Source: Patescibacteria group bacterium
Lineage (GTDB): Bacteria > Patescibacteriota > Patescibacteriia > JAACEG01
Length of the DNA: 32,629 nucleotides
Assembly (NCBI GenBank): GCA_034660735.1
Contig: JAYEJQ010000071.1
Location: forward strand, 1 to 32,629
Reading direction: 5' to 3'
The number at the start of each line of letters is the position of its first letter. The first letter of the stretch is position 1. The notes beneath the pieces were generated by a model. It was given only the letters and a program-made list of their open reading frames with translations, had not been told where the DNA came from and did not search any database. Both the position numbers and the translations under genes were made by a program. This document shows positions 840-32,629 of the stretch, piece after piece.

Positions 840-1844
840 ATGCAACCGAATAAAAAATTTATCACAATTAAAGATACCGAAAATAAAGTTAAAGCTCTTT
901 TGAACGAGCTTGTTTTACAGCCAAGGATAAATGCAATTAAATGGTCTCAAATAACAAAACAAACACCAAATATTAAAATCGGATACCCAGGACAACACCT
1001 TGCATCTTTAATTACAGGAATGGAAGGCGAAAGGACGGGAGCAAGAGGAAATGATTTAATAGACGGATCAGAGGTAAAATCATGTTCAAGAATAGATCAG
1101 CTTGATTTGTGCAAAGACTGTAAAACTCCAGTGGCAAGGCTTGAAAATGAATGTTCAAATTGTGGCTCAAATAATATTGATCGAAAAAAAGATTCAAAAT
1201 GGCTCTTTTCTGTTAGAACTAAAGACGAATTGAATGTTTTATTACATGAGGTAAAAAGAGTATTTTTAATCATTGGCGATTATCCAAATTTCGAAAATAA
1301 TGATTTTGAAACTTTAAGATTCCAAGCGTTTGAAATTTGGCCAGAAAATCCAAAAAATAAAAAATTTTCTGAAATAATGACCAATTACTATAATAAAATA
1401 TATTTGGCTCACAAAAAGAAAAATCCAAACAAAACTCCAGCTCCAAAAAACTTTTGGCCATACCAATATCAATTTTATATTTGTAATCCAATTCTTGTTT
1501 TTTCCTGTATAGTAGTGAAATCAAATTCTAATCCAAAAATAAATATTGAATATTATTTAAAACCTGTTGCTGACCGTTCAAAGAAAAAATCTATTTTAAT
1601 GCCAGCGAATATATTAAATGAAAAAGAAATTGATTTACTTTTTAGAAAAGCGCCAAAAGAAGAGATTTTGAAAATGATTAAAAAAGAGCATAAAATTAAA
1701 AAAATAAAGAAACTCTCTTTAAAGGAAAAACAAGAAATGTTTATTGGTATTGATGAAAATTTAAGAAATTATTTGCCTCTCAGAGATACTGATAAAATTT
1801 CCATTGCTAAAAGCAAATATTCAAGAAGAAAAAATTCAAAATAG
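840..1844 (+). CDS. putative type II restriction endonuclease (PD-(D/E)xK-like core with a CxxC...CxxC zinc-ribbon insert)
   Basis: The call rests on position, directly after a C protein and convergent with a methyltransferase. GARGNDLIDGSEVKS fits a D...ExK nuclease motif (D72, E78, K80). CKDC...CSNC (C91, C94, C105, C108) follows. I recognise no specific family with certainty. Confidence 0.45.
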   Translation: MQPNKKFITIKDTENKVKALLNELVLQPRINAIKWSQITKQTPNIKIGYPGQHLASLITGMEGERTGARGNDLIDGSEVKSCSRIDQLDLCKDCKTPVARLENECSNCGSNNIDRKKDSKWLFSVRTKDELNVLLHEVKRVFLIIGDYPNFENNDFETLRFQAFEIWPENPKNKKFSEIMTNYYNKIYLAHKKKNPNKTPAPKNFWPYQYQFYICNPILVFSCIVVKSNSNPKINIEYYLKPVADRSKKKSILMPANILNEKEIDLLFRKAPKEEILKMIKKEHKIKKIKKLSLKEKQEMFIGIDENLRNYLPLRDTDKISIAKSKYSRRKNSK

Positions 1845-3392
1845 TTTAGGAGTTCTTTTTAAGTTTTTTATTCTTTCTTTCGCTATTTTTGTGTATTTTT
1901 TATCAATATCAATACCGATATAATTTCTTTTAAGTTCAGCACAAGCTAAGGCGGTCGAACCTGCACCAACAAAAGGATCCAAAACAGTCATTCCTTCATT
2001 GCTACTTGCTTTTACTATTCTTTCAATAAGACGCACTGGTTTTTGTGTTGGGTGATATCGTTTTTCTTTGTAAAAATCAATATCATTCCAGACATCAGTA
2101 AATCCCATTTGGGCGTTAAAGATAAAATTTACTTCTGAATACGGTTTTTTAAATTTTAATATTTTTTCAAGCTTTTCCCATTGTTCTTTTGTTGGAATTT
2201 GAGCCAATATATTTTTACCAGTATACAAAGACCACAAACCGCCTCCGTTACTTTTAACTTCCATCGCTTCATTTATTTCTTTTGCGGTTAAGTCAGTTTC
2301 TTTTTGTCTATCAAGAAGAAACTTTTTTATTTCTGGTTGGTTATTGTAAGCAAAAAATAGAATACTTTCTGTCACATTGGGAAACATCTTATAGTTTTTT
2401 GTTGCTCTTCCGCTAACAGATCTCATTCCTTTGTTGATTATTATTTGCTGTCTTAAGGAAAAACCTTCTTTCTCAATTTCGGGGAGTAAATATGCTAAAG
2501 TTTTAAAGTACCCGAATAAATAAAAAGAACCTGTTTTTTTTGTAATTCGTACAAGCTCTTTGAGCCATTGTTTGCACCAAATAATATAATCGTTCTCGGT
2601 TCGCCATTTATAATCCCATTTTTCATTTATTACTTTCCAGTATGGAGGATCAGCAACAATCAAATCAATTGAATGATCTGGAATTTTTTTTAATTCTTCA
2701 ACTACATCTCCGCAAATAATTTTATTTAATGGTAATTTAGAATATTTTTTTACTTGCTTTTCTTCCTTTTTTTTTATGATTTCTGTATCTAAAATTTTAT
2801 TTTTTATCACATCAACAACAAGACCTTGAATGATAATTTCTTGCTCGTCTTTTTTTATAATGATTGGTTCATATTCTTTATTAGCTGGTTGCAGGCGTAT
2901 TTGATTTTTTTCTTTGTAGAATGTTTTTAATGTTGCCTCGTAATTATCAATCAAGGCAACTACTTTCTGTCCATTTTCAGCGACCTGCTGTTCTTTTACC
3001 AAAATAATATCACCATCATTGATATTTTCATCAATCATGCTTTTTCCTGCCACTCGCAAAGCGTAAAAATTTCCGCTTCTCATTATTTTTGTTTTTGGTA
3101 TAGCAATTGTTTCTTTTTCTTGAATAGCTTCAATTGGTTGTCCCGCAGCAATTGTTCCCATTAAAGGAATTTTTACCATTTGCTGGCTTTCATAAACGGA
3201 TATTGATCTTGGGCTGTTTTCTTCCTTATTCAAAAATCCTTCTTCTTGCAGTTTCTTTATATGAAAATGGGCGGTTGAAACAGAGGCAACTTTGAGTTTT
3301 TTGCGTATCTCTTCCAAAGAGGGGGCATACCCTTTTTTCTTGTGATATGAGGATATAAAGTCTAAAACTTGTTTTTGTTTTTTTGTTAGCAT
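1836..3392 (-). CDS. fusion protein: full-length LexA (winged HTH plus S24 autopeptidase) joined to a beta-class N6A/N4C DNA methyltransferase
   Basis: Residues 1-205 align end to end with LexA: MLTKKQKQVLDFI..., cleavage motif IAAG (A83-G84, nt 3141-3146), GKSM (S118, nt 3039-3041), TLK (K156, nt 2925-2927), GLVVDVIKN. Residues 225-518 carry DPPY (248-251, nt 2640-2651) upstream of HPTQKP and LDPFVGAGSTALA. That motif IV-before-motif I order is typical of the N6_N4_Mtase family. The ORF is one uninterrupted frame. Confidence 0.85.
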   Translation of the reverse strand: MLTKKQKQVLDFISSYHKKKGYAPSLEEIRKKLKVASVSTAHFHIKKLQEEGFLNKEENSPRSISVYESQQMVKIPLMGTIAAGQPIEAIQEKETIAIPKTKIMRSGNFYALRVAGKSMIDENINDGDIILVKEQQVAENGQKVVALIDNYEATLKTFYKEKNQIRLQPANKEYEPIIIKKDEQEIIIQGLVVDVIKNKILDTEIIKKKEEKQVKKYSKLPLNKIICGDVVEELKKIPDHSIDLIVADPPYWKVINEKWDYKWRTENDYIIWCKQWLKELVRITKKTGSFYLFGYFKTLAYLLPEIEKEGFSLRQQIIINKGMRSVSGRATKNYKMFPNVTESILFFAYNNQPEIKKFLLDRQKETDLTAKEINEAMEVKSNGGGLWSLYTGKNILAQIPTKEQWEKLEKILKFKKPYSEVNFIFNAQMGFTDVWNDIDFYKEKRYHPTQKPVRLIERIVKASSNEGMTVLDPFVGAGSTALACAELKRNYIGIDIDKKYTKIAKERIKNLKRTPKLF

Positions 3393-3761: not shown

Positions 3762-4163
3762 ATGGAAAACAAGCGTAAACATCTCGAATTTATTCAGGCA
3801 ATCATCAGTCGAATGGCTGGCAATTTGTTTTTCTTGAAAGGATGGACTATCACATTAATTGTGGCACTTTTCGCATTTTTTGTAAAAGACGCGAATACCG
3901 ATTTTATTTTTGTCATTTATTTCCCAGTCATTATTTTTTGGATATTGGATGGGTATTTTCTTTCACAAGAACGATTATTCAGGGCGTTATATAATCATGT
4001 GCGAAAACTAGATGAAAAGGAAATTAACTTTTCAATGAATACAAATAAATATAATGAGGACAAAAGGAATGGTTGGCTACACTCAATGTTTTCGAGTACG
4101 CTTCTATTTTTTTATTTGCCACTTGTCGGCGTTATGTTATTAGTTACATATTTAATAAATTAA
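3762..4163 (+). CDS. small integral membrane protein (about 3 TM helices), function unknown; candidate effector partner of the TIR protein
   Basis: Hydrophobic spans are LFFLKGWTITLIVALFAFFV, FIFVIYFPVIIFWILDGYFL and a C-terminal TLLFFYLPLVGVMLLVTYLI. The gene starts 19 nt after the previous ORF and ends 10 nt before the next. Confidence 0.6.
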   Translation: MENKRKHLEFIQAIISRMAGNLFFLKGWTITLIVALFAFFVKDANTDFIFVIYFPVIIFWILDGYFLSQERLFRALYNHVRKLDEKEINFSMNTNKYNEDKRNGWLHSMFSSTLLFFYLPLVGVMLLVTYLIN

Positions 4164-4173
4164 ATTCAAAGTT

Positions 4174-4611
4174 ATGAGAAAAGTATTTTTTAGCTTCAAA
4201 TACAAGGATGTATCAAGAACAATGATTGTTAGGAATAGTTGGGTTGCTCAAGGAAAAGATGCGGCGGGTTTTATTGACTCCGCCGATTTTGAGGACTTGA
4301 AACGACAAGGTGACACAGCAATTAAAAACTGGATAGATAAACAACTCAATGGAACATCAGTTACTGTCGTCTTAGTAGGCGAAAAAACTTGTGATAGCAG
4401 GTGGGTAAAATATGAGATTGAAAAAAGCATTGAAATTGGGAATGGCTTATTAGGAATTGATGTAAGTAAGATAGAGGATTTGCAGGGTAATACTTCTGAA
4501 AGATGTGGCAAAATTCCAAAAGGTTACAATTTTTACCTTTGGAACAACGATGACGGATATCACAAAATGGGCGATTGGATTGAGAAAGCGGCGAAAGATG
4601 CTGGAAGATAA
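4174..4611 (+). CDS. ThsB-like TIR domain protein (DUF1863 / TIR-like family)
   Basis: KVFFSFKYKDV...VRNSWV...AAGFIDSADFEDLKR...TSVTVVLVGEKTCDSRWVKYEIEKSIEIGNGLLGI matches the ThsB/TIR-like signature as I know it. The match includes the RWV.YEI.KS segment with the conserved Glu (E81, nt 4414-4416). Confidence 0.8.
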   Translation: MRKVFFSFKYKDVSRTMIVRNSWVAQGKDAAGFIDSADFEDLKRQGDTAIKNWIDKQLNGTSVTVVLVGEKTCDSRWVKYEIEKSIEIGNGLLGIDVSKIEDLQGNTSERCGKIPKGYNFYLWNNDDGYHKMGDWIEKAAKDAGR

Positions 4612-5553: not shown

Positions 5554-7272
<1,719 letters not shown>

Positions 7273-25998: not shown

Positions 25999-26057
25999 AA
26001 AACTTTAATTTTATAGTTTATTTTGCCGAGTAATATTTAGTTAGCAACAGACACAGA

Positions 26058-26081
26058 CCCCGCCGCTCGCAAGCAGCGGGG
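26058..26081 (+). repeat. GC-rich hairpin repeat CCCCGCCGCTCGCRAGCAGCGGGG (copy 1)
   Basis: CCCCGCCGCTCGCAAGCAGCGGGG lies just downstream of the PP-loop gene. Related copies are at 29131 (opposite orientation) and 30372. Confidence 0.75.
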
Positions 26082-26095
26082 TGACAAGCGTGATT

Positions 26096-27137: not shown

Positions 27138-29057
27138 TTATTTTTTCGTACTTATGAAAGTTACTACTTCCTCGCCCTCTTTTAATCCGCTGATGATTTC
27201 AATCGCGTTGCCGTCTCCGCGCAACCCTGAACTCACAGTTCTTTTTTCTACTTGATTGTTTTTTAAAACTTTTACATATCTTCCCTCTGTTCCTTGAAAA
27301 TCAAAATCCATTTCTGTGATAGCTCTTGCCGGGATAATCAATACCCCTTCTTTTTTTTCTGTCAAAATATCAACATTGGCTGTCATCCCAGATTTTACTT
27401 CTCTTGATACAGGATTGAATTTAACTATAGTTTTATAATAGATGACATCTTGAATTACGGTTTCCGCTGGTTCAATAAAATTTATCTCTCCGCTAAAACT
27501 TTCATATTCGCCGAACGCGTCTAAGGTAATTTTAACAGGATCTTCCTTGTCTATTTTTGTAATATCTGTTTCTGAAATAAGGACTTCTATTTCAAAATCA
27601 TTTTTTCCAAGCAAAGAGACAACTGGCTTACTGCCTGGCTGTTCCCCGATTTCATATTCAATCTTGATTATTTTTCCGCTAATTGGCGCTTTGATTATGC
27701 TATTATTTATCTGGCTGCTGATTGAGTCTATAGCCGCTTGCGCTTGATCAACTTTAGCGCGAGATAAAGCAATATCTTCACTTCTTGCTGAAGCCTTTAT
27801 TTTTTTCAACTGGCTTTCCGCGATTTCTAAATTTTTTAAAGCCGCGCTGATTTTTGATTGAGCGGCGGTAATCTGTTGTTCTCCTAAAATTTTCGCGGAC
27901 GATAAACTATTTTCAGCAGTTAAAATAGCGTTGCTAAAACTCACAATCGCTTTTGTTAAAGCCTCTTCAGCATTAGAAACATTTATTTGATAATCCAAAA
28001 TTGCGTCGGATAAATTTTGGTGGCTTGTTTGGATACTTGAAATCGCGGCGGCTGCTAATATAATTTGCGAATTGATACTTGTTTTATAGGTGTCCAAGTC
28101 GGTTTGAGTAAAAGAAGAGTAAGCGACTGTATTTTCCAACGCGCTAAAGCAACTGTTAAGCGCGATAAAAATTTTGTCTAAAATAATTAGGGTGTTATTT
28201 AATAATTCGCTCGCGTTTTCGCCGTTTTTATCGCTTTTTGCATAAGACAGATTATCAGAAACTGAAGTTAAAGAATTTTTTGCATTGTTGTAATTGTCTG
28301 TAGTTTCGGTTTTGTACTCTGTTTTTTTAGCGCTAAAAACAGATTTAATGTCTTCATCAGTAAGGATTTGATTAATTTTGTCAAGCGCCGTGTTGGCTGC
28401 TGATAATTTATCGTCAACTGCTATGAGCGCGTTTTCAATATAATTATCAACCTTTCTTTGATAAGTGTTTTTGGTATTGTCTAAATTGACTTGAGCAGTT
28501 GTTATTGCTTGCTCATAAGTTGTTATGTCGCTATCAGTTTTAAATTTTAGATCATCAAAAGATTTTTGCGCTTGTCGGATATTTTCATCAGCAACCGCTT
28601 CTATTTTTTTTAAATCTAACAAAGAAGTTTCATAAGCGGTTTTTGCCTGATTAACATTTGCCTGACTAACTGCAATCTCGGTTTTTGGAGCGCCCGCGAT
28701 TAGTTTATTTAAATTCGCCCGCGCAACATTTAAGTTTGCTGTTGCTTCGCGTTTTTTAATATTCAAATCGCTGTAATCTAATTCTGCTAGTATTTTATCT
28801 TTTTCAATATCGTCTCCGATTTTAACAAGAATTTTCGCTATCCGCCCGCTATTTAAAAAATTAAGATCTATCTCTTTAGCGGCTTTAACCGCGCCAGTTT
28901 CATTTACTGTCTGGACAATAGTTCCACGCTTCACTTTTTCAGTAACATACTCTTCGTCATTTTTTTCTCCAACCAAAAAATAAGCGGCTGCTCCTCCGCC
29001 GATTAAAAATACAAGCAGAATAATTATTATTCTTTTAACGTTTTTTTTAAAAGCCAT
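27138..29057 (-). CDS. HlyD/MacA-type membrane fusion (periplasmic adaptor-like) protein with a very long coiled-coil region
   Basis: An N-terminal TM helix is followed by the lipoyl-like half GRIAKILVKIGDDIEKDKILAELD. A predicted helical repeat region of roughly 350 aa comes next. The second lipoyl half is IKAPISGKIIKI, and a beta-barrel C-terminus follows. Confidence 0.75.
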   Translation of the reverse strand: MAFKKNVKRIIIILLVFLIGGGAAAYFLVGEKNDEEYVTEKVKRGTIVQTVNETGAVKAAKEIDLNFLNSGRIAKILVKIGDDIEKDKILAELDYSDLNIKKREATANLNVARANLNKLIAGAPKTEIAVSQANVNQAKTAYETSLLDLKKIEAVADENIRQAQKSFDDLKFKTDSDITTYEQAITTAQVNLDNTKNTYQRKVDNYIENALIAVDDKLSAANTALDKINQILTDEDIKSVFSAKKTEYKTETTDNYNNAKNSLTSVSDNLSYAKSDKNGENASELLNNTLIILDKIFIALNSCFSALENTVAYSSFTQTDLDTYKTSINSQIILAAAAISSIQTSHQNLSDAILDYQINVSNAEEALTKAIVSFSNAILTAENSLSSAKILGEQQITAAQSKISAALKNLEIAESQLKKIKASARSEDIALSRAKVDQAQAAIDSISSQINNSIIKAPISGKIIKIEYEIGEQPGSKPVVSLLGKNDFEIEVLISETDITKIDKEDPVKITLDAFGEYESFSGEINFIEPAETVIQDVIYYKTIVKFNPVSREVKSGMTANVDILTEKKEGVLIIPARAITEMDFDFQGTEGRYVKVLKNNQVEKRTVSSGLRGDGNAIEIISGLKEGEEVVTFISTKK

Positions 29058-29130
29058 ATTTAAATTATTTTTTAAATTTTAAAATATTACTTTAAATTAC
29101 GAAACTATTCTAAACTAATCTGTTATTCCG

Positions 29131-29154
29131 CCCCGCTGCTCGCGAGCGGCGGGG
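29131..29154 (-). repeat. GC-rich hairpin repeat (copy 2) embedded in a TGTCATTCTG...GGAAT element
   Basis: The plus strand reads CCCCGCTGCTCGCGAGCGGCGGGG followed by CAGAATGACA. The reverse complement is TGTCATTCTGCCCCGCCGCTCGCGAGCAGCGGGG. Confidence 0.75.
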
Positions 29155-29211
29155 CAGAATGACAATAATTTTTTTGTTGAATAATATTTTATGTTTTGTA
29201 ATTCAAAAATG

Positions 29212-29385
29212 TTAAAATTTTTTTCTCATTGTTCTTAAACATTTGGCGCAAAGTTTTGTTTTTTTGCCGCCAATTATTTTTGTCTGCAAATTAGGATACT
29301 GTTTCCTTTTTGTAGCTTGCATTGAATGACTGCGGCTGTTTACAGTTAAAGGTTTTTTGCCGCAAATTTCGCATATTTTAGACAT
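29212..29385 (-). CDS. rpmB: 50S ribosomal protein L28
   Basis: The ORF is absent from the track because it is under 60 aa. The minus-strand translation is MSKICEICGKKPLTVNSRSHSMQATKRKQYPNLQTKIIGGKKTKLCAKCLRTMRKKF* (57 aa), which shows the classic L28 pattern. Confidence 0.85.
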   Translation of the reverse strand: MSKICEICGKKPLTVNSRSHSMQATKRKQYPNLQTKIIGGKKTKLCAKCLRTMRKKF

Positions 29386-29560
29386 AGTAAAAAAAAATGT
29401 GTTATATTAAATAAAATGAATTTGTATTTTTATCTTATCATTTTTTTTATTTTTGGCAAGGGTGTTCATAAAATAAATTAGTACTTCTGTTTTTTTTGTG
29501 CTATTATTTATTTGTAAAGAATATTTTAATTACCTTAACTTTCAGAAAGGAGGTGTAAAA

Positions 29561-30118
29561 ATGTTTAGAAAATTAAATCAAAAAGGTTTTACTCTGATTG
29601 AGTTGTTAGTAGTAATCGCTATTATCGGCATCTTGTCAACTATGGCTGTTGTCGCTTTAACAAGCGCCAACACCAAAGCTCGCGACGCCAAGCGCCAGTC
29701 CGATTTGAAAGTTATGCAAACCGCGATTGAAATGTATGCTACTGATCATGGAAATCCGCCACCACTCTCAACTTGGACCGCATTAGGAACGGCTTTAGCA
29801 AATTATTTGCCTGGCGGACTGCCTGAAGATCCGAGCGGAACACCGCGTGATTGGTGTTATTGTGTTGCTGGTGGCGCATCTCCTACTGGTAAATATTTAA
29901 TCGCAACAAGTTTAGAGCGAAGTCAGGCCGTAGCAAGTGATATAGATTCTAACTCAGCTGCTATTCTTGCCACTTATGGAGCTCTTTATGCAAACTGCGT
30001 ATGTTCTGATGTTGTGGGCGCAGCTAATCCTCCAGCTGCTTTAGATTGTCAAGATTCTGGATCTGGAACAGTTGATAACAATGCTTCTACTACTGCTGTT
30101 TGTTTGGGTTCTGTTTAA
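29561..30118 (+). CDS. type IV pilin / GspG-like major (pseudo)pilin with prepilin leader
   Basis: AAGGAGG (29547-29553) lies 7 nt upstream of ATG 29561. MFRKLNQKG|FTLIELLVVIAIIGILSTMAVVAL is a class III signal. ARDAKRQSDLKVMQTAIEMY is typical of PulG-like pilins. The longer 29498 start in the ORF track is rejected. Confidence 0.9.
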   Translation: MFRKLNQKGFTLIELLVVIAIIGILSTMAVVALTSANTKARDAKRQSDLKVMQTAIEMYATDHGNPPPLSTWTALGTALANYLPGGLPEDPSGTPRDWCYCVAGGASPTGKYLIATSLERSQAVASDIDSNSAAILATYGALYANCVCSDVVGAANPPAALDCQDSGSGTVDNNASTTAVCLGSV

Positions 30119-30154
30119 TAATTATTAATTAAACACTGTACAATTGTACGAAAT

Positions 30155-30183
30155 AAAAACACCCCAAATTTTGGGGTGTTTTT
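30155..30183 (+). terminator. rho-independent terminator after the pilin gene
   Basis: AAAAACACCCCAAA / TTTGGGGTGTTTTT is a perfect palindrome. The core stem is CACCCC/GGGGTG, followed by a T run. Confidence 0.8.
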
Positions 30184-30210
30184 ATATTTTGTAATTTTGT
30201 GATAGAATAA

Positions 30211-30295
30211 AAAAACATAATAACATTTAAACATAGAAACATAGAAACATTTAAACATTTAAACATAGAAACATTTAAGCATTTAAGCATTTAAC
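30211..30295 (-). repeat. octamer array A1, about 10 units of NNAAACAT, the reverse complement of ATGTTTNN
   Basis: Units in order: AAAAACAT AATAACAT TTAAACAT AGAAACAT AGAAACAT TTAAACAT TTAAACAT AGAAACAT TTAAGCAT TTAAGCAT. A short extra copy lies at 30581-30594. Confidence 0.9.
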
Positions 30296-30310
30296 TGTTA
30301 GATTGCCCAA

Positions 30311-30570
30311 CGTTGTTTACACTTTTTAATTATTTTAATTGTATTTTTTTTAAAAAAGAATGTCATTCTGACCCCGCCGCTCGCGAGCAACAGAGGAAGA
30401 ATCTGCTTTGCTTATAATTAAAATATTATTTAAATAATTGAACAATAAGCATAAGCGATTTTAAAATAATTTAACGATAGTTAAGCCAGATTCTTCACTT
30501 CCGATGGTCGTTCAGAATGACAAATTTTAAAGATAAATAATTTTAAAAAAATTAAAAAGTGTAAACAACG
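30311..30570. repeat. 260-bp nested palindromic element
   Basis: The perfect 20-bp outer inverted repeat is CGTTGTTTACACTTTTTAAT (30311-30330) with its reverse complement at 30551-30570. Inner inverted repeats are TGTCATTCTGA (30361-30371) / TCAGAATGACA (30512-30522) and GAAGAATCTG (30396-30405) / CAGATTCTTC (30487-30496). The element contains copy 3 of the GC hairpin (30372-30396). Confidence 0.8.
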
Positions 30571-30603
30571 CTAGTATGTCTTACATTTAAACATAAAAAT
30601 TGT

Positions 30604-30927
30604 ATGAATGATTTTCAAGAACAATTAAAGAAAAAAATGGATGGATATGCGCATTTGGTTTATAAAATTACTAAAAAATTTCCAAAACATGAAATATATG
30701 GAATCACATCTCAACTAAGAAGATCTGCGTTATCGGTTATTTTAAATTATATTGAAGGTTTTGCCAGACAAAGAAAAAATATACAAATATATTTTTGGGA
30801 AATTTCTTATGGGTCACTAAAAGAATCAAAATATCTTTTACATTTTGCATTGACAGAAAAATATTTTGATAAAAAAAATTATAGAAATGCTATAAAATTA
30901 TCCGAAGAAATAGGCGCTATGATTTGA
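30604..30927 (+). CDS. four-helix-bundle protein (23S rRNA intervening-sequence protein / Avd-like family)
   Basis: LVYKITKKFPKHEIYGITSQLRRSALSVILNYIEGFARQRKN...YGSLKESKYLLHFA matches the family signature (FP..E.YGLTSQLRRAA.SI..NIAEG......F......GSL.E). Confidence 0.85.
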   Translation: MNDFQEQLKKKMDGYAHLVYKITKKFPKHEIYGITSQLRRSALSVILNYIEGFARQRKNIQIYFWEISYGSLKESKYLLHFALTEKYFDKKNYRNAIKLSEEIGAMI

Positions 30928-30958
30928 AGTTTATTAAAATCATTAAAAAATCAAAAAA

Positions 30959-31070
30959 ATGTTTAAATGTTTCTATGTTTAAATGTTTCCATGTTTCCAT
31001 GTTTAAATGTTTAAATGTTTAAATGTTTAAATGTTTCTATGTTTCTATGTTTAAATGTTTCTATGTTTTC
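30959..31070 (+). repeat. octamer array A2, 14 tandem ATGTTTNN units that run into the prepilin peptidase start
   Basis: Units start every 8 nt from 30959: AA CT AA CC CC AA AA AA AA CT CT AA CT TC, given as the last two bases of each unit. Every unit carries an ATG. Confidence 0.92.
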
Positions 31071-31826
31071 ATCCTCGGAGCAATAATCGGCAGTTTTTTA
31101 AATGTTGTCATTTTTCGTCTGCGCGCGAAAAAATCATTTTTAAAAGGTCGCTCATATTGCCCTAAGTGTAAAAAGAAAATAGCATGGTATGACAATATTC
31201 CGATTTTGAGTTTTTTAATTCTGCGCGGAAAATGCCGAAACTGCAAAACGAAAATTTCATTTCAATATCCATTAGTAGAATTATCAACAGGTGTTCTATT
31301 TGTTATAACATTTTTTCATAATTACCAATTACCAATTACCAATTACCAATTACCAATTACTGTTTTTCGCGACTGGTTTTTTGTTTCTGTTTTAATAATA
31401 ATTTTTGTTTATGATTTTAAATATTATTTGATTTTAGATAAAATTACTATTCCAGCGATAATCATAGCTTTCGCTTTAAATTTTTCACTCGGATTTTCTT
31501 TGTCAAATATTTTAATTGGTGCTATAATAGGAGGGAATTTTTTTTTAATTCAATTTTTAATTTCCAAAGGCAGGTGGATAGGGGGAGGGGATATTCGCTT
31601 AGGAATCTTGATGGGTGTTATGCTCGGATGGAAAATGGTTATTTTAGCTATTATGATTGCTTATATTGTCGGAGCGATTTTTAGTATCATTTTATTGGCA
31701 TTTAAAAAAAAAGGATTAAAAAGCCAAATTCCATTAGGAACATTTTTATCAATAGCGACGATGATTGTTATGCTCTATGGAAATGAAATTTTAGAATGGT
31801 ATTTAAAAACTTTAATTGTATATTGA
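31023..31826 (+). CDS. prepilin peptidase (A24 family, PilD-like) with an N-terminal CxxC...CxxC domain
   Basis: GAIIGSFLNVVIFRL, CPKCKKKIAWYDNIPILSFLILRGKCRNCKTKISFQYPLVEL, and later GGGDIRLGILMG containing the second catalytic Asp. The start is ambiguous between 31023 and the in-frame 31047, both inside the repeat array. Confidence 0.88.
   Translation: MFKCFYVSMFKCFYVFILGAIIGSFLNVVIFRLRAKKSFLKGRSYCPKCKKKIAWYDNIPILSFLILRGKCRNCKTKISFQYPLVELSTGVLFVITFFHNYQLPITNYQLPITVFRDWFFVSVLIIIFVYDFKYYLILDKITIPAIIIAFALNFSLGFSLSNILIGAIIGGNFFLIQFLISKGRWIGGGDIRLGILMGVMLGWKMVILAIMIAYIVGAIFSIILLAFKKKGLKSQIPLGTFLSIATMIVMLYGNEILEWYLKTLIVY
31321..31360 (+). repeat. tandem heptamer ATTACCA, about 5.7 copies, inside the prepilin peptidase CDS
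   Basis: ATTACCA occurs five times followed by ATTAC, and is translated as NYQLPITNYQLPIT. Confidence 0.92.
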
Positions 31827-31829
31827 TTT

Positions 31830-31861
31830 GTGTTTTTATGTTTAAGTGTTTAAATGTTTCA
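31830..31861 (+). repeat. octamer array A3, 4 units, containing the start codon of the next pilin gene
   Basis: GTGTTTTT ATGTTTAA GTGTTTAA ATGTTTCA. The last unit supplies ATG 31854. Confidence 0.8.
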
Positions 31862-32393
31862 TATGCTGTTTAAAAACAATAAGGGTTTTAGCGTGGTTGA
31901 ATTGCTTACGGCTATTTCAATTCTTGCCATAATCACATCATTTTCCGTAATTAACTTTAATACATGGAAAAAAAATGAGAACTTAAGGCAAAGCGGACGA
32001 GAATTAGCTAATAATATCCGCAACGCCCAGACAAAAAGCTTGTCAGGAGAAATGTTTAATGGAATTTCGCCGTCCGGATATGGAATTTATTTTTCAAATG
32101 CCAGTTCTTCTTCTTATGTATTATTTGCTGATTTAGACAACGATTTCATCTATGATTCCGCTGACGGTGAATTTGTTGATACTTATAATTTAACTGATAA
32201 TGTTTTAATCTCTAATTTAACCCCGATTTTCGACAACGAACTTACGATCGTTTTTAAATCGCCTAACGCGAAAATTTATATCAATCAAAATATATTAGCC
32301 GACGGCGCGCAAATTGAATTAACTCATAATATTACTGCTAATAATAAAATCATAGAAGTTAGGAGAATTACAGGCAGAATAGATATTCAGTAA
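31854..32393 (+). CDS. minor (pseudo)pilin with prepilin-type N-terminal cleavage/methylation domain (GspH/FimT-like)
   Basis: MFHMLFKNNKG|FSVVELLTAISILAIITS, followed by a REL.N.IRNAQ segment typical of GspH/FimT-type minor pilins. Confidence 0.8.
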   Translation: MFHMLFKNNKGFSVVELLTAISILAIITSFSVINFNTWKKNENLRQSGRELANNIRNAQTKSLSGEMFNGISPSGYGIYFSNASSSSYVLFADLDNDFIYDSADGEFVDTYNLTDNVLISNLTPIFDNELTIVFKSPNAKIYINQNILADGAQIELTHNITANNKIIEVRRITGRIDIQ

Positions 32394-32580
32394 AAAAATC
32401 AAAAATCAAATCTCAAAATGCAAAATGATAATATAAAATTAAAAAAGAAAAAATGAAAATGATATTTTTAAATAATTGTAAGTTTATCTTTTAATTTGCC
32501 GTGTCGCAGTCTTTGTCGGAAACTGCGACGGGGCGAAAAAATTAAAATTTATTTTAAAATTTAAAATTAATTCAATACAT

Positions 32581-32629
32581 ATGCTTAACATAAAATCCTG
32601 CCAAAAAGGGCAGGGGCTTATTGAAGTTA
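32581..32629 (+). CDS. 5' end of another prepilin-type gene, truncated by the window edge
   Basis: The translation MLNIKSCQKGQGLIEV... shows the K-G-x-G-L-I-E pattern of a class III signal. Only 16 codons are visible. Confidence 0.4.
   Translation, partial: MLNIKSCQKGQGLIEV

Follow-up and report, generated by a model that had tools for sequence, protein, structure and literature searches.

Intervening sequences (IVSs) of bacterial 23S rRNA genes are the closest described counterparts of the element reported here. The 23S IVS of Coxiella burnetii carries an S23p open reading frame (ORF) within a hairpin whose terminal inverted repeats are cut by RNase III, and two to three tandem heptamers (GACAGAT), variable in number between strains, lie just before this decaying ORF (PMC4990558). 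ORFs of the four-helix-bundle (4HB) family also occur in insertions of the 16S and 23S rRNA genes of Candidate Phyla Radiation (CPR) bacteria (PMC11270868). The stretch analyzed here, a contig of 32,629 nt (32.6 kb) from a Patescibacteria group bacterium that is termed the window and in whose positions all coordinates are given, encodes a 4HB ORF between a major pilin gene and the prepilin peptidase gene pilD, flanked by two mutually inverted octamer arrays designated A1 (left) and A2 (right). The preferred reading, with a probability of roughly 0.6, is that the two arrays form the arms of a hairpin cassette of IVS type situated outside rRNA with the 4HB ORF in its loop, the cassette being a small mobile or indel-prone element with arms composed of tandem octamers. 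The arrangement does not represent a pilus switch, because the same repeat-armed design surrounds the 4HB family in many CPR bacteria and cyanobacteria.

The window has its ORF family (PF05635/TIGR02436) in common with the 23S rRNA IVSs of Coxiella burnetii, Leptospira, and Brucella and with the Xanthomonas-type XCC0516. As in these IVSs, the ORF lies in the loop of a terminal-inverted-repeat hairpin (arms 30212-30290 and 30991-31069 in the window, 79 nt and 90% complementary), lacks a Shine-Dalgarno sequence, belongs to a class of ORFs that is often decaying, and has the sense orientation in a spacer that is highly transcribed (PMC4990558). Tandem units directly before the ORF start are a further likeness to Coxiella, represented in the window by the units at 30581-30598 and then A1. 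The window cassette differs from the 23S IVSs in lying not in rRNA but between a protein-coding gene's promoter and its start codon, in having arms made up entirely of 10-14 tandem octamers in place of a unique 28-bp stem, and in a right arm that doubles as the start and N-terminal codons of pilD. With the exception of its location, in an mRNA leader, and of arms that consist wholly of tandem units, the element has all of the tested sequence features of the Coxiella IVS.

Short tandemly repeated repetitive (STRR) heptamers are known in heterocystous cyanobacteria. A second class of comparable repeats, the TAACTGA intergenic direct repeats of Beggiatoaceae, Cyanobacteria, and some Bacteroidetes, consists of solo heptamers ending by start codons (MacGregor, 2015; PMC4679880). 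The window arrays partly resemble both classes in that tandem units with a genome-specific sequence occupy spacers, are mostly forward, and end a few bases from a start codon; the solo array A3 between pilD and the minor pilin gene and an ATTCTTA array before groEL fit this description, and the flanks of cyanobacterial 4HB genes are likewise heptamers. However, STRR and TAACTGA repeats were described as solo direct arrays with no link to 4HB genes or to inverted pairing, and the window units are 8 nt long and ATG-bearing, whereas related cassettes have 7-nt units in 35 of 74 loci.

Tandem Repeats Finder recovered A1 at 30213-30294 (period 8, approximately 9-10 units of NNAAACAT), A2 at 30957-31068 (period 8, 14.0 units of ATGTTTNN), and A3 at 31838-31859 (2.8 clean units, or 4 when GTG variants from 31830 are counted). 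The A1 unit NNAAACAT is the reverse complement of the A2 unit ATGTTTNN. Allowing at most one mismatch, ATGTTTNNATGTTT was matched 25 times compared with 1.2 +/- 1.3 expected from 100 shuffles (maximum 5), and 24 of the 25 matches fell within A1, A2, and A3. The octamer structure of the three arrays is non-random. The arrays themselves and the inversion of A1 relative to A2 had been reported in an initial annotation made from the sequence alone and were reproduced at the same positions or within a few bases of them, with A2 beginning at 30957. Its description of a micro-ORF MFKCLNV*, with a TAA arising only where an AA-type unit falls in the third register, was also correct as read from the sequence since three consecutive ATGTTTAA units translate as M F K C L N V followed by a stop.

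The 4HB ORF matched PF05635 with 89.2 bits (E = 2e-25; cut-off 33.8) and TIGR02436 with 85.7 bits (cut-off 24). The only solved structure related by sequence was 2gsc (E = 3e-9), the XCC0516 protein of Xanthomonas, which forms a homopentamer of four-helix bundles (Warrier et al., PMC4990558). The closest homologues of the window protein are 67-78% identical and carry the CPR labels Pacebacteria, Andersenbacteria, Parcubacteria, and "Patescibacteria group," and exact-sequence look-ups of the window 4HB and pilin proteins matched no further contig. The ORF stops at a TGA where at least 90% of homologues have a conserved Trp, which leaves the copy approximately 9 codons short; homologous coding sequence runs on past this TGA and the ancestral stop is gone. 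An alternative genetic code reading UGA as Trp or Gly was considered and rejected, because code 11 leaves no interruption in the large housekeeping ORFs of the window.

The placement of the cassette was resolved by comparison with syntenic relatives that were picked via PilD homologues (compared loci are labeled with L-numbers). In L081-L085, PilD is 81-84% identical to that of the window, nucleotide identity is 78-87% on both sides of the site, and the gene order ThiI/NFACT, HlyD-like, L28 (not called in all), pilin, pilD, and minor pilin is shared. These loci contain the pilin terminator, an extended -10 (TGgTAAAAT or TGaTATAAT), and, 6 nt further on, the start codon of pilD (ATGTTTAT in L081-L084 and ATGGTTAT in L085), and no array, palindrome, or 4HB ORF was found at the pilD site in any of them. 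The BLAST alignment breaks on the left at window position 30213/30214 and homology resumes on the right at 31046-31062, giving approximately 832 bp (30214-31045) that are extra in the window relative to the syntenic relatives and that are placed exactly between the conserved extended -10 and the pilD start codon. The terminator hairpin on the pilin side is kept in the relatives (alignment with L081, L085, and L086). The pilD mRNA of L081-L085 is probably leaderless, because the -10 stands 6 nt 5' of the ATG. The empty site that the initial annotation had proposed to seek in related genomes was therefore present in L081-L085, and its suggestion that the 4HB gene is the cargo of an inserted element was upheld by the absence of the whole A1-to-A2 block from these relatives.

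Other elements were found at the same junction in further loci. L086 (3690-3975) contains a GC-armed palindrome of approximately 285 bp without an ORF at the pilD promoter/start junction, with three forward-type ATGTTTNN-like units at its right end. The more distant L097 (925-1120; 68% identical) has two A1-type units (CTAAACAT TTAAACAT) at this junction, and these reverse-type units are followed by a GC-rich palindromic stretch of approximately 180 bp, also without an ORF. Because L086 and L097 hold different elements there, the pilD junction is an insertion hot spot with turnover. Insertion in the lineage of the window is a simpler reading than precise loss in L081-L085.

The same design was recovered far beyond the pilus genes. 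Relatives of the window 4HB protein were compiled at 80 loci (one genome per species), most of them labeled CPR/Patescibacteria, of which 74 were suitable for testing flank periodicity and complementarity. In most loci, 7- or 8-nt arrays directly flank the 4HB ORF in inverted orientation (Tandem Repeats Finder and direct reading), with lineage-specific units such as ACATATAA / ATGTTTAA, AACTTGA / GCTTCAA, and AAGCGTG / GCTTCAC. The best autocorrelation lag was equal on both flanks in 59 of the 74 loci (35 with 7/7 and 24 with 8/8), compared with 25 of 146 control windows that had 7 or 8 as their best lag. When the upstream flank was scored against the reverse complement of the downstream flank, the best ungapped score had a median of 16.75 within the same locus versus 8.0 for between-locus flank pairs and 8.0 for same-locus flanks in direct orientation; 46 of the 74 loci lay above the control 95th percentile for flank complementarity. 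The upstream array typically stops approximately 0-40 nt before the 4HB ATG and at times overlaps it (...AACATG), the first downstream unit often follows the 4HB stop codon directly (TAAATGTT...), and the downstream array often extends up to the ATG of the gene that follows. The nearest homologues of the window 4HB carry TNAACAT-type octamers like those of the window, and the array-coded extension of the next gene in L006 and L007 (MLNCLNV, MFKCLNV) closely resembles the extension in the window. In L005 and L007, the cassette lies between pilD and the minor pilin gene, the position of the solo A3 in the window, and one of 20 cassettes scanned with Rfam sits between tRNA genes. Pilin genes were found downstream of 8 of 76 cassettes versus 12 of 311 in the background (p = 0.04), a weak difference against a biased background that is not relied on.

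Inverted arrays also occur in these loci without an ORF. A total of 23 such pairs was found, with loops of 4-62 nt and mostly in spacers just before start codons. In L036, L043, and L022, several consecutive spacers each contain an ORF-less inverted array pair (loop 7-30 nt), and array hairpins of this kind are abundant in these genomes directly 5' of start codons. The ORF-less elements of L086 (blastn) and L097 (inspection) had no significant sequence similarity to the palindrome of the window.

The 4HB gene is oriented with its neighbors in a ratio of 143:8 (upstream neighbor 71:3; downstream neighbor 72:5) compared with a baseline of 162:50 (76%) for other adjacent pairs in the same loci (Fisher p = 1e-6), and this sense-orientation bias fits dependence on read-through transcription. 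It also bears on the fim-type switch raised in the initial annotation, in which recombination between A1 and A2 would flip the 663-bp segment and thereby control the pilus genes. With arms of 79-89 nt that are 80-90% complementary and approximately 670-700 bp apart, rare homologous inversion is conceivable. However, the 32.6-kb window lacks a gene for a site-specific recombinase (a Pfam scan of its 25 largest ORFs revealed no recombinase, integrase, transposase, or reverse transcriptase), the promoter-like site lies outside the segment such that flipping would not re-orient it, the 4HB ORF is predominantly in sense orientation across the 80 loci, and the same arrays flank 4HB genes beside unrelated genes. 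Weak consensus promoter matches within the AT-rich segment numbered 24, close to the 14.7 +/- 4.4 obtained in shuffles. An invertible switch is considered extremely improbable.

The family was followed outside the CPR bacteria by tblastn of the window 4HB protein against 72,556 plasmids, where matches were restricted to cyanobacteria (20 records) and ten loci were read. The cyanobacterial 4HB genes are located in tight spacers between co-oriented genes, including cas6-4HB-cas4 in Anabaena 90 and Pseudanabaena and cmr2 (cas10)-4HB-cmr3 in Picosynechococcus. Heptamer arrays flank nine of the ten, being inverted in seven (two of which, L089 and L091, are near-identical), one-sided in one, and direct in one, and the remaining locus has none. 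Examples of the units are TCAGGAG, GGTGACA / TGTCACC, GGAGATA / TATCTCC, GGGAAAA / TTTTCCC, and GGCAGAA / CTTCTGC. The exception to the hairpin design is L094 from Pseudanabaena, which has long direct arrays of GCTAAAA x15 (314-443) and GCCAAAA x10 (807-910). An earlier survey listed 18 such 4HB genes in cas loci as a possible cas association and did not mention repeats (PMC3936711). The array-flanked 4HB genes between cas or cmr genes in L088, L090, and L094 suggest passenger cassettes as the basis of the published "23S_rRNA_IVP association with cas loci." In CPR bacteria and cyanobacteria, the arrays accompany 4HB genes beside many kinds of gene, such that the arrangement is not the pilus-specific device envisaged in the initial annotation. 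No account of 4HB cassettes flanked by such arrays, in either CPR bacteria or cyanobacteria, came up in searches of the literature.

In the minimum-free-energy fold of 30195-31085 (-236.9 kcal/mol, z = -17.8), A1 is paired with A2, and the predicted duplex of approximately 75 bp buries the AUGs at 31023 and 31047. A hairpin cassette at this site could operate as follows. Transcription from the conserved -10 would start at approximately 30215, at the first A1 unit, and the 5' part of the pilD mRNA would consist of A1, the palindrome, the 4HB ORF, and A2, with the cassette probably co-transcribed with pilD. The A1:A2 RNA duplex would hide the pilD start. By analogy with 23S rRNA IVSs, RNase III may cut the duplex and free the 4HB segment. 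The processed pilD mRNA would then start inside A2 near the AUG, close to the leaderless state of the relatives. As to how such cassettes might spread, recombination or gene conversion mediated by the arrays would be the simplest route, because no transposase is present; speculatively, arrays common genome-wide could serve as the substrate, with the ORF-less array hairpins acting as landing pads.

Several results weigh against the hairpin cassette as set out above. A mirror-order permutation test showed that unit order is not mirrored between the arms (p <= 0.05 in 0 of 26 loci; p = 0.8 for the window alone), and a wobble test revealed no sense-strand excess of G.U (41 G.U-type versus 60 A.C-type mismatches). 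Selection for RNA pairing is not claimed because both tests were negative. The solo A3 and the direct-array locus L094 indicate that pairing cannot be the sole role of the arrays. An Rfam scan of 20 related loci returned no rRNA match, such that strict membership of the IVSs fails, and no RNase III gene was found in the window. The 4HB ORF of the window is truncated and this copy may be decaying. Finally, precise loss in L081-L085 is possible, because L097 carries two A1-type units at the site.

The two negative tests also fit a neutral by-product, in which the arrays grow in the manner of microsatellites by replication slippage and template switching at hairpin arms and persist as harmless in spacers, serving neither pilD nor the cassette. 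The free differences in unit number at A3 among relatives (0 in L085, 4 in the window, and approximately 6 in L081) and the heptamer arrays with unrelated units elsewhere in the window (before groEL, at tRNA-Ser, and inside pilD) point the same way. Neutral growth is nevertheless judged quite improbable as the whole explanation, since a matching period on both flanks in 59 of 74 loci with complementary units, in distant phyla, together with tight boundaries at the ORF start and stop and a 95% sense-orientation bias, is too regular for drift alone.

Avd relatives of the 4HB protein bind nucleic acid and a reverse transcriptase. Protein binding by the units, as putative DNA or RNA sites for the 4HB protein or another factor, would allow the flanking arrays to autoregulate the cassette or mark it for mobilization, while A3 would link the downstream genes to the same factor. 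Arrays occur solo and directly before start codons (A3, with six units in L081), and the direct arrays of L094 agree better with binding than with pairing. Within one mismatch, other arrays matched the cassette unit of their own locus at a fraction of 0.39 and the units of other loci at 0.16, indicating that units are more alike within a genome than between genomes. Array period also follows 4HB similarity, the ratio of 8/8 to 7/7 loci being 12:4 at >=66% identity to the window protein and 12:32 below 66%, and the high conservation of the 4HB protein among its closest homologues implies a selected function. However, shared descent or gene conversion would produce these correlations equally well, the window copy of the 4HB gene is truncated, and the arrays adjoin no replication or regulatory gene. 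No replication initiator was found nearby, where the neighbors are pilus and housekeeping genes, and a role as iterons of a replication origin is not borne out. Protein binding in the wider sense, which the initial annotation had suggested in iteron-like form, is a serious rival of the hairpin cassette but is considered unlikely. A broader proposal, that the 4HB protein acts on the 7-8-nt arrays by binding, processing, or mobilizing array hairpins and that this constitutes one phylum-spanning system of CPR bacteria, cyanobacteria, and the published rRNA IVSs, is put forward tentatively as a doubtful but conceivable extension; if correct, it would assign a function both to the orphan "IVS protein" family and to the long-unexplained STRR/heptamer repeats of cyanobacteria and would explain the 4HB genes inside cas, pilus, and tRNA operons.

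For the start of pilD, 31047 agrees best with the relatives, with an alternative in-frame ATG at 31023, and the last A2 units supply the start codon and the first codons. The first 8-16 PilD residues are array-coded (MFKCFYV...) in place of MFIYFFIF in the relatives, and the Pfam peptidase N-terminal domain begins at 31071, directly 3' of A2. Of the two start codons that the initial annotation placed within repeat units, the one of pilD at 31047 does lie in A2, whereas the minor-pilin start conserved among relatives is 31863, outside A3, and not the repeat-unit ATG at 31854.

The proximity of arrays and start codons had led to the proposal of translational phase variation, in which a change in octamer number would turn production of PilD and the minor pilin on or off. 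A unit length of 8 that is not a multiple of 3, arrays that overlap or abut start codons, TAA stops that depend on the unit type in the third register, and a unit number that varies between relatives at A3 are all compatible with such a mechanism. This variation was seen only at the solo A3, and L086 has an unrelated 290-bp insert at the A3 junction instead. In contrast, ATGs every 8 nt cycle through all three frames, and the in-frame ATG at 31047 persists whatever the number of units upstream; because the spacing between the last three units and pilD is constant, unit number cannot put the gene out of frame, and gain or loss alters only the length of the N-terminal extension or the chance placement of a TAA. 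The conserved minor-pilin start lies outside A3. Furthermore, 34 of 65 related downstream arrays have no ATG in their consensus unit (8 of 27 octamer and 26 of 38 heptamer arrays). Since an ATG is present in 19 of 27 octamer compared with 12 of 38 heptamer arrays, ATG-bearing units are a trait of the sub-lineage of the window and not of the cassette design. Phase variation by octamer slippage is thus very improbable.

The features of the locus are listed in Table 1; profile matches supported all four genes named in the initial annotation (pilin, 4HB, peptidase, and minor pilin), and the extra repeat copy that it had placed just before the 4HB gene was recovered in the A1 orientation.

Table 1. 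Coordinates of features around the 4HB cassette (window positions).
Feature	Position	Strand	Evidence and remarks
Major pilin gene	29561-30118	+	PF07963 N_methyl, E = 1e-10; ATGTTT start, strong Shine-Dalgarno
Intrinsic-terminator-like hairpin 3' of pilin gene	30153-30185	+	15-pair stem, then T run
Promoter-like site, extended -10 (TTTATA-16-TAGAAT, TG before it)	30181-30208	+	Predicted
Array A1, left arm, ~10 units of NNAAACAT	30211-30295	.	Repeat searches
Nested palindrome without ORF, splitting the upstream array	30296-30580	.	Repeat and fold analysis
Upstream-array remnant, two A1-orientation units, beside 4HB start codon	30581-30598	.	
4HB ORF, 107 aa	30604-30927	+	PF05635 / TIGR02436 ("S23p", IVS-protein family)
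Degenerate 3' tail of 4HB ORF	30928-30956	+	Homology to C-terminus of intact homologues (SLLKSLK)
Array A2, right arm, 14 units of ATGTTTNN	30957-31070	+	Repeat searches, alignment of relatives
Prepilin peptidase gene pilD	31047-31826	+	PF06750 and PF01478; alignment with relatives
Array A3, solo forward, ~4 units	31830-31861	+	Stops 1 nt 5' of conserved minor-pilin start
Minor pilin gene, conserved start MLFKNNKGF	31863-32393	+	Profile matches and relatives

The nested palindrome between A1 and the 4HB gene, another feature of the initial annotation, was substantiated by its outer arms (30290-30356 / 30525-30591), its inner arms (30396-30427 / 30465-30496), and a fold z-score of approximately -9.6 versus shuffles on either strand. 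At 285 bp, it splits the left arm of the window cassette, whereas the upstream array abuts the ORF in typical cassettes, and the palindrome is probably a secondary insertion of a hairpin element. No second full copy was found in the window or relatives, and Rfam gave no match for the palindrome or arrays (gathering thresholds over the whole window and permissive thresholds over 29000-32629) and no rRNA in the window. The palindrome has a 29-nt GC-hairpin motif in common with 29137-29164. A GC-rich hairpin motif (TGTCATTCTG-CCCCGCCGCTCGCGAGC...) occurs in three spacers of this AT-rich genome, at 29131-29164, 26056-26082, and 30361-30389, and the last of these copies falls inside the palindrome. 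A further insert of approximately 144 bp at 32394-32536, 3' of the minor-pilin stop, is specific to the window (L081, L085, and L086 lack it) and combines AAAAATC heptamers with a GC hairpin; it represents a third variable spacer of the operon.

Two other known systems were compared. Repetitive extragenic palindromes and bacterial interspersed mosaic elements (REP/BIME) and miniature inverted-repeat transposable elements (MITEs) resemble the cassette as small transposase-less hairpin elements in operon spacers whose presence varies among relatives, and the operon of the window holds several unrelated hairpin inserts. They differ in having a fixed palindrome instead of tandem microsatellite-like arms, and many copies of the cassette carry a conserved ORF. 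No target-site duplication was present at the junctions aligned to empty sites and no transposase in the window, which argues against assignment to the MITEs. The Avd proteins of diversity-generating retroelements have the four-helix-bundle superfamily in common with the window ORF, but the Avd models scored below their cut-offs (bAvd PF22296, 37 bits versus 40; NCBIfam DivGenRetAVD, 36 bits versus 80). Neither a reverse transcriptase in the window nor a template/variable direct repeat in 29900-32629 was found, and the locus does not qualify as a retroelement.

The habitual bracketing of an orphan 4HB family by inverted 7-8-nt arrays in CPR bacteria and cyanobacteria, which was not found in the literature searched, suggests a general rule, namely that IVS-protein genes ride in hairpins with tandem 7-8-nt arms and in sense orientation within transcribed spacers. 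The rule covers mRNA, tRNA, and (from the literature) rRNA operons and is testable at scale, and it connects rRNA intervening sequences, STRR/heptamer repeats, and the 4HB genes "associated" with CRISPR-cas loci. For the window, the hairpin cassette predicts concrete RNA-processing sites before pilD. With regard to annotation, start codons assigned within such arrays should be treated as unreliable, and a 4HB gene located in an operon is probably a passenger.

Further short repeats were identified in the window. A perfect heptamer array (ATTCTTA x4.6) at 5554-5585 lies between groES and groEL and stops 7 nt short of the groEL start codon (ATG at 5593); this solo forward array has a unit unrelated to those of A1-A3. 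Heptamers of AAATCCG (x4.4) at 76-106 abut the 5' end of tRNA-Ser (108-197), and a GC-rich perfect palindrome of approximately 110 bp lies 3' of this tRNA at 241-350. A perfect in-frame heptamer array (AATTACC x5.9) at 31320-31360 inside pilD (42 nt) encodes NYQLPITNYQLPIT in the linker that joins the two peptidase domains, a linker of which the relatives have an imperfect version.

In the left part of the window, a MamI-type restriction endonuclease gene at 840-1844 (+) has a 9-nt convergent overlap with an ORF at 1836-3392 (-) of 518 aa, in which LexA DNA-binding and S24 peptidase domains are joined to an N6/N4 DNA methylase in an unusual fusion. An ORF at 4174-4611 encodes a ThsB-type TIR domain (Thoeris-like, E = 2e-22) and is adjoined by an unannotated ORF of 133 aa at 3762-4163.

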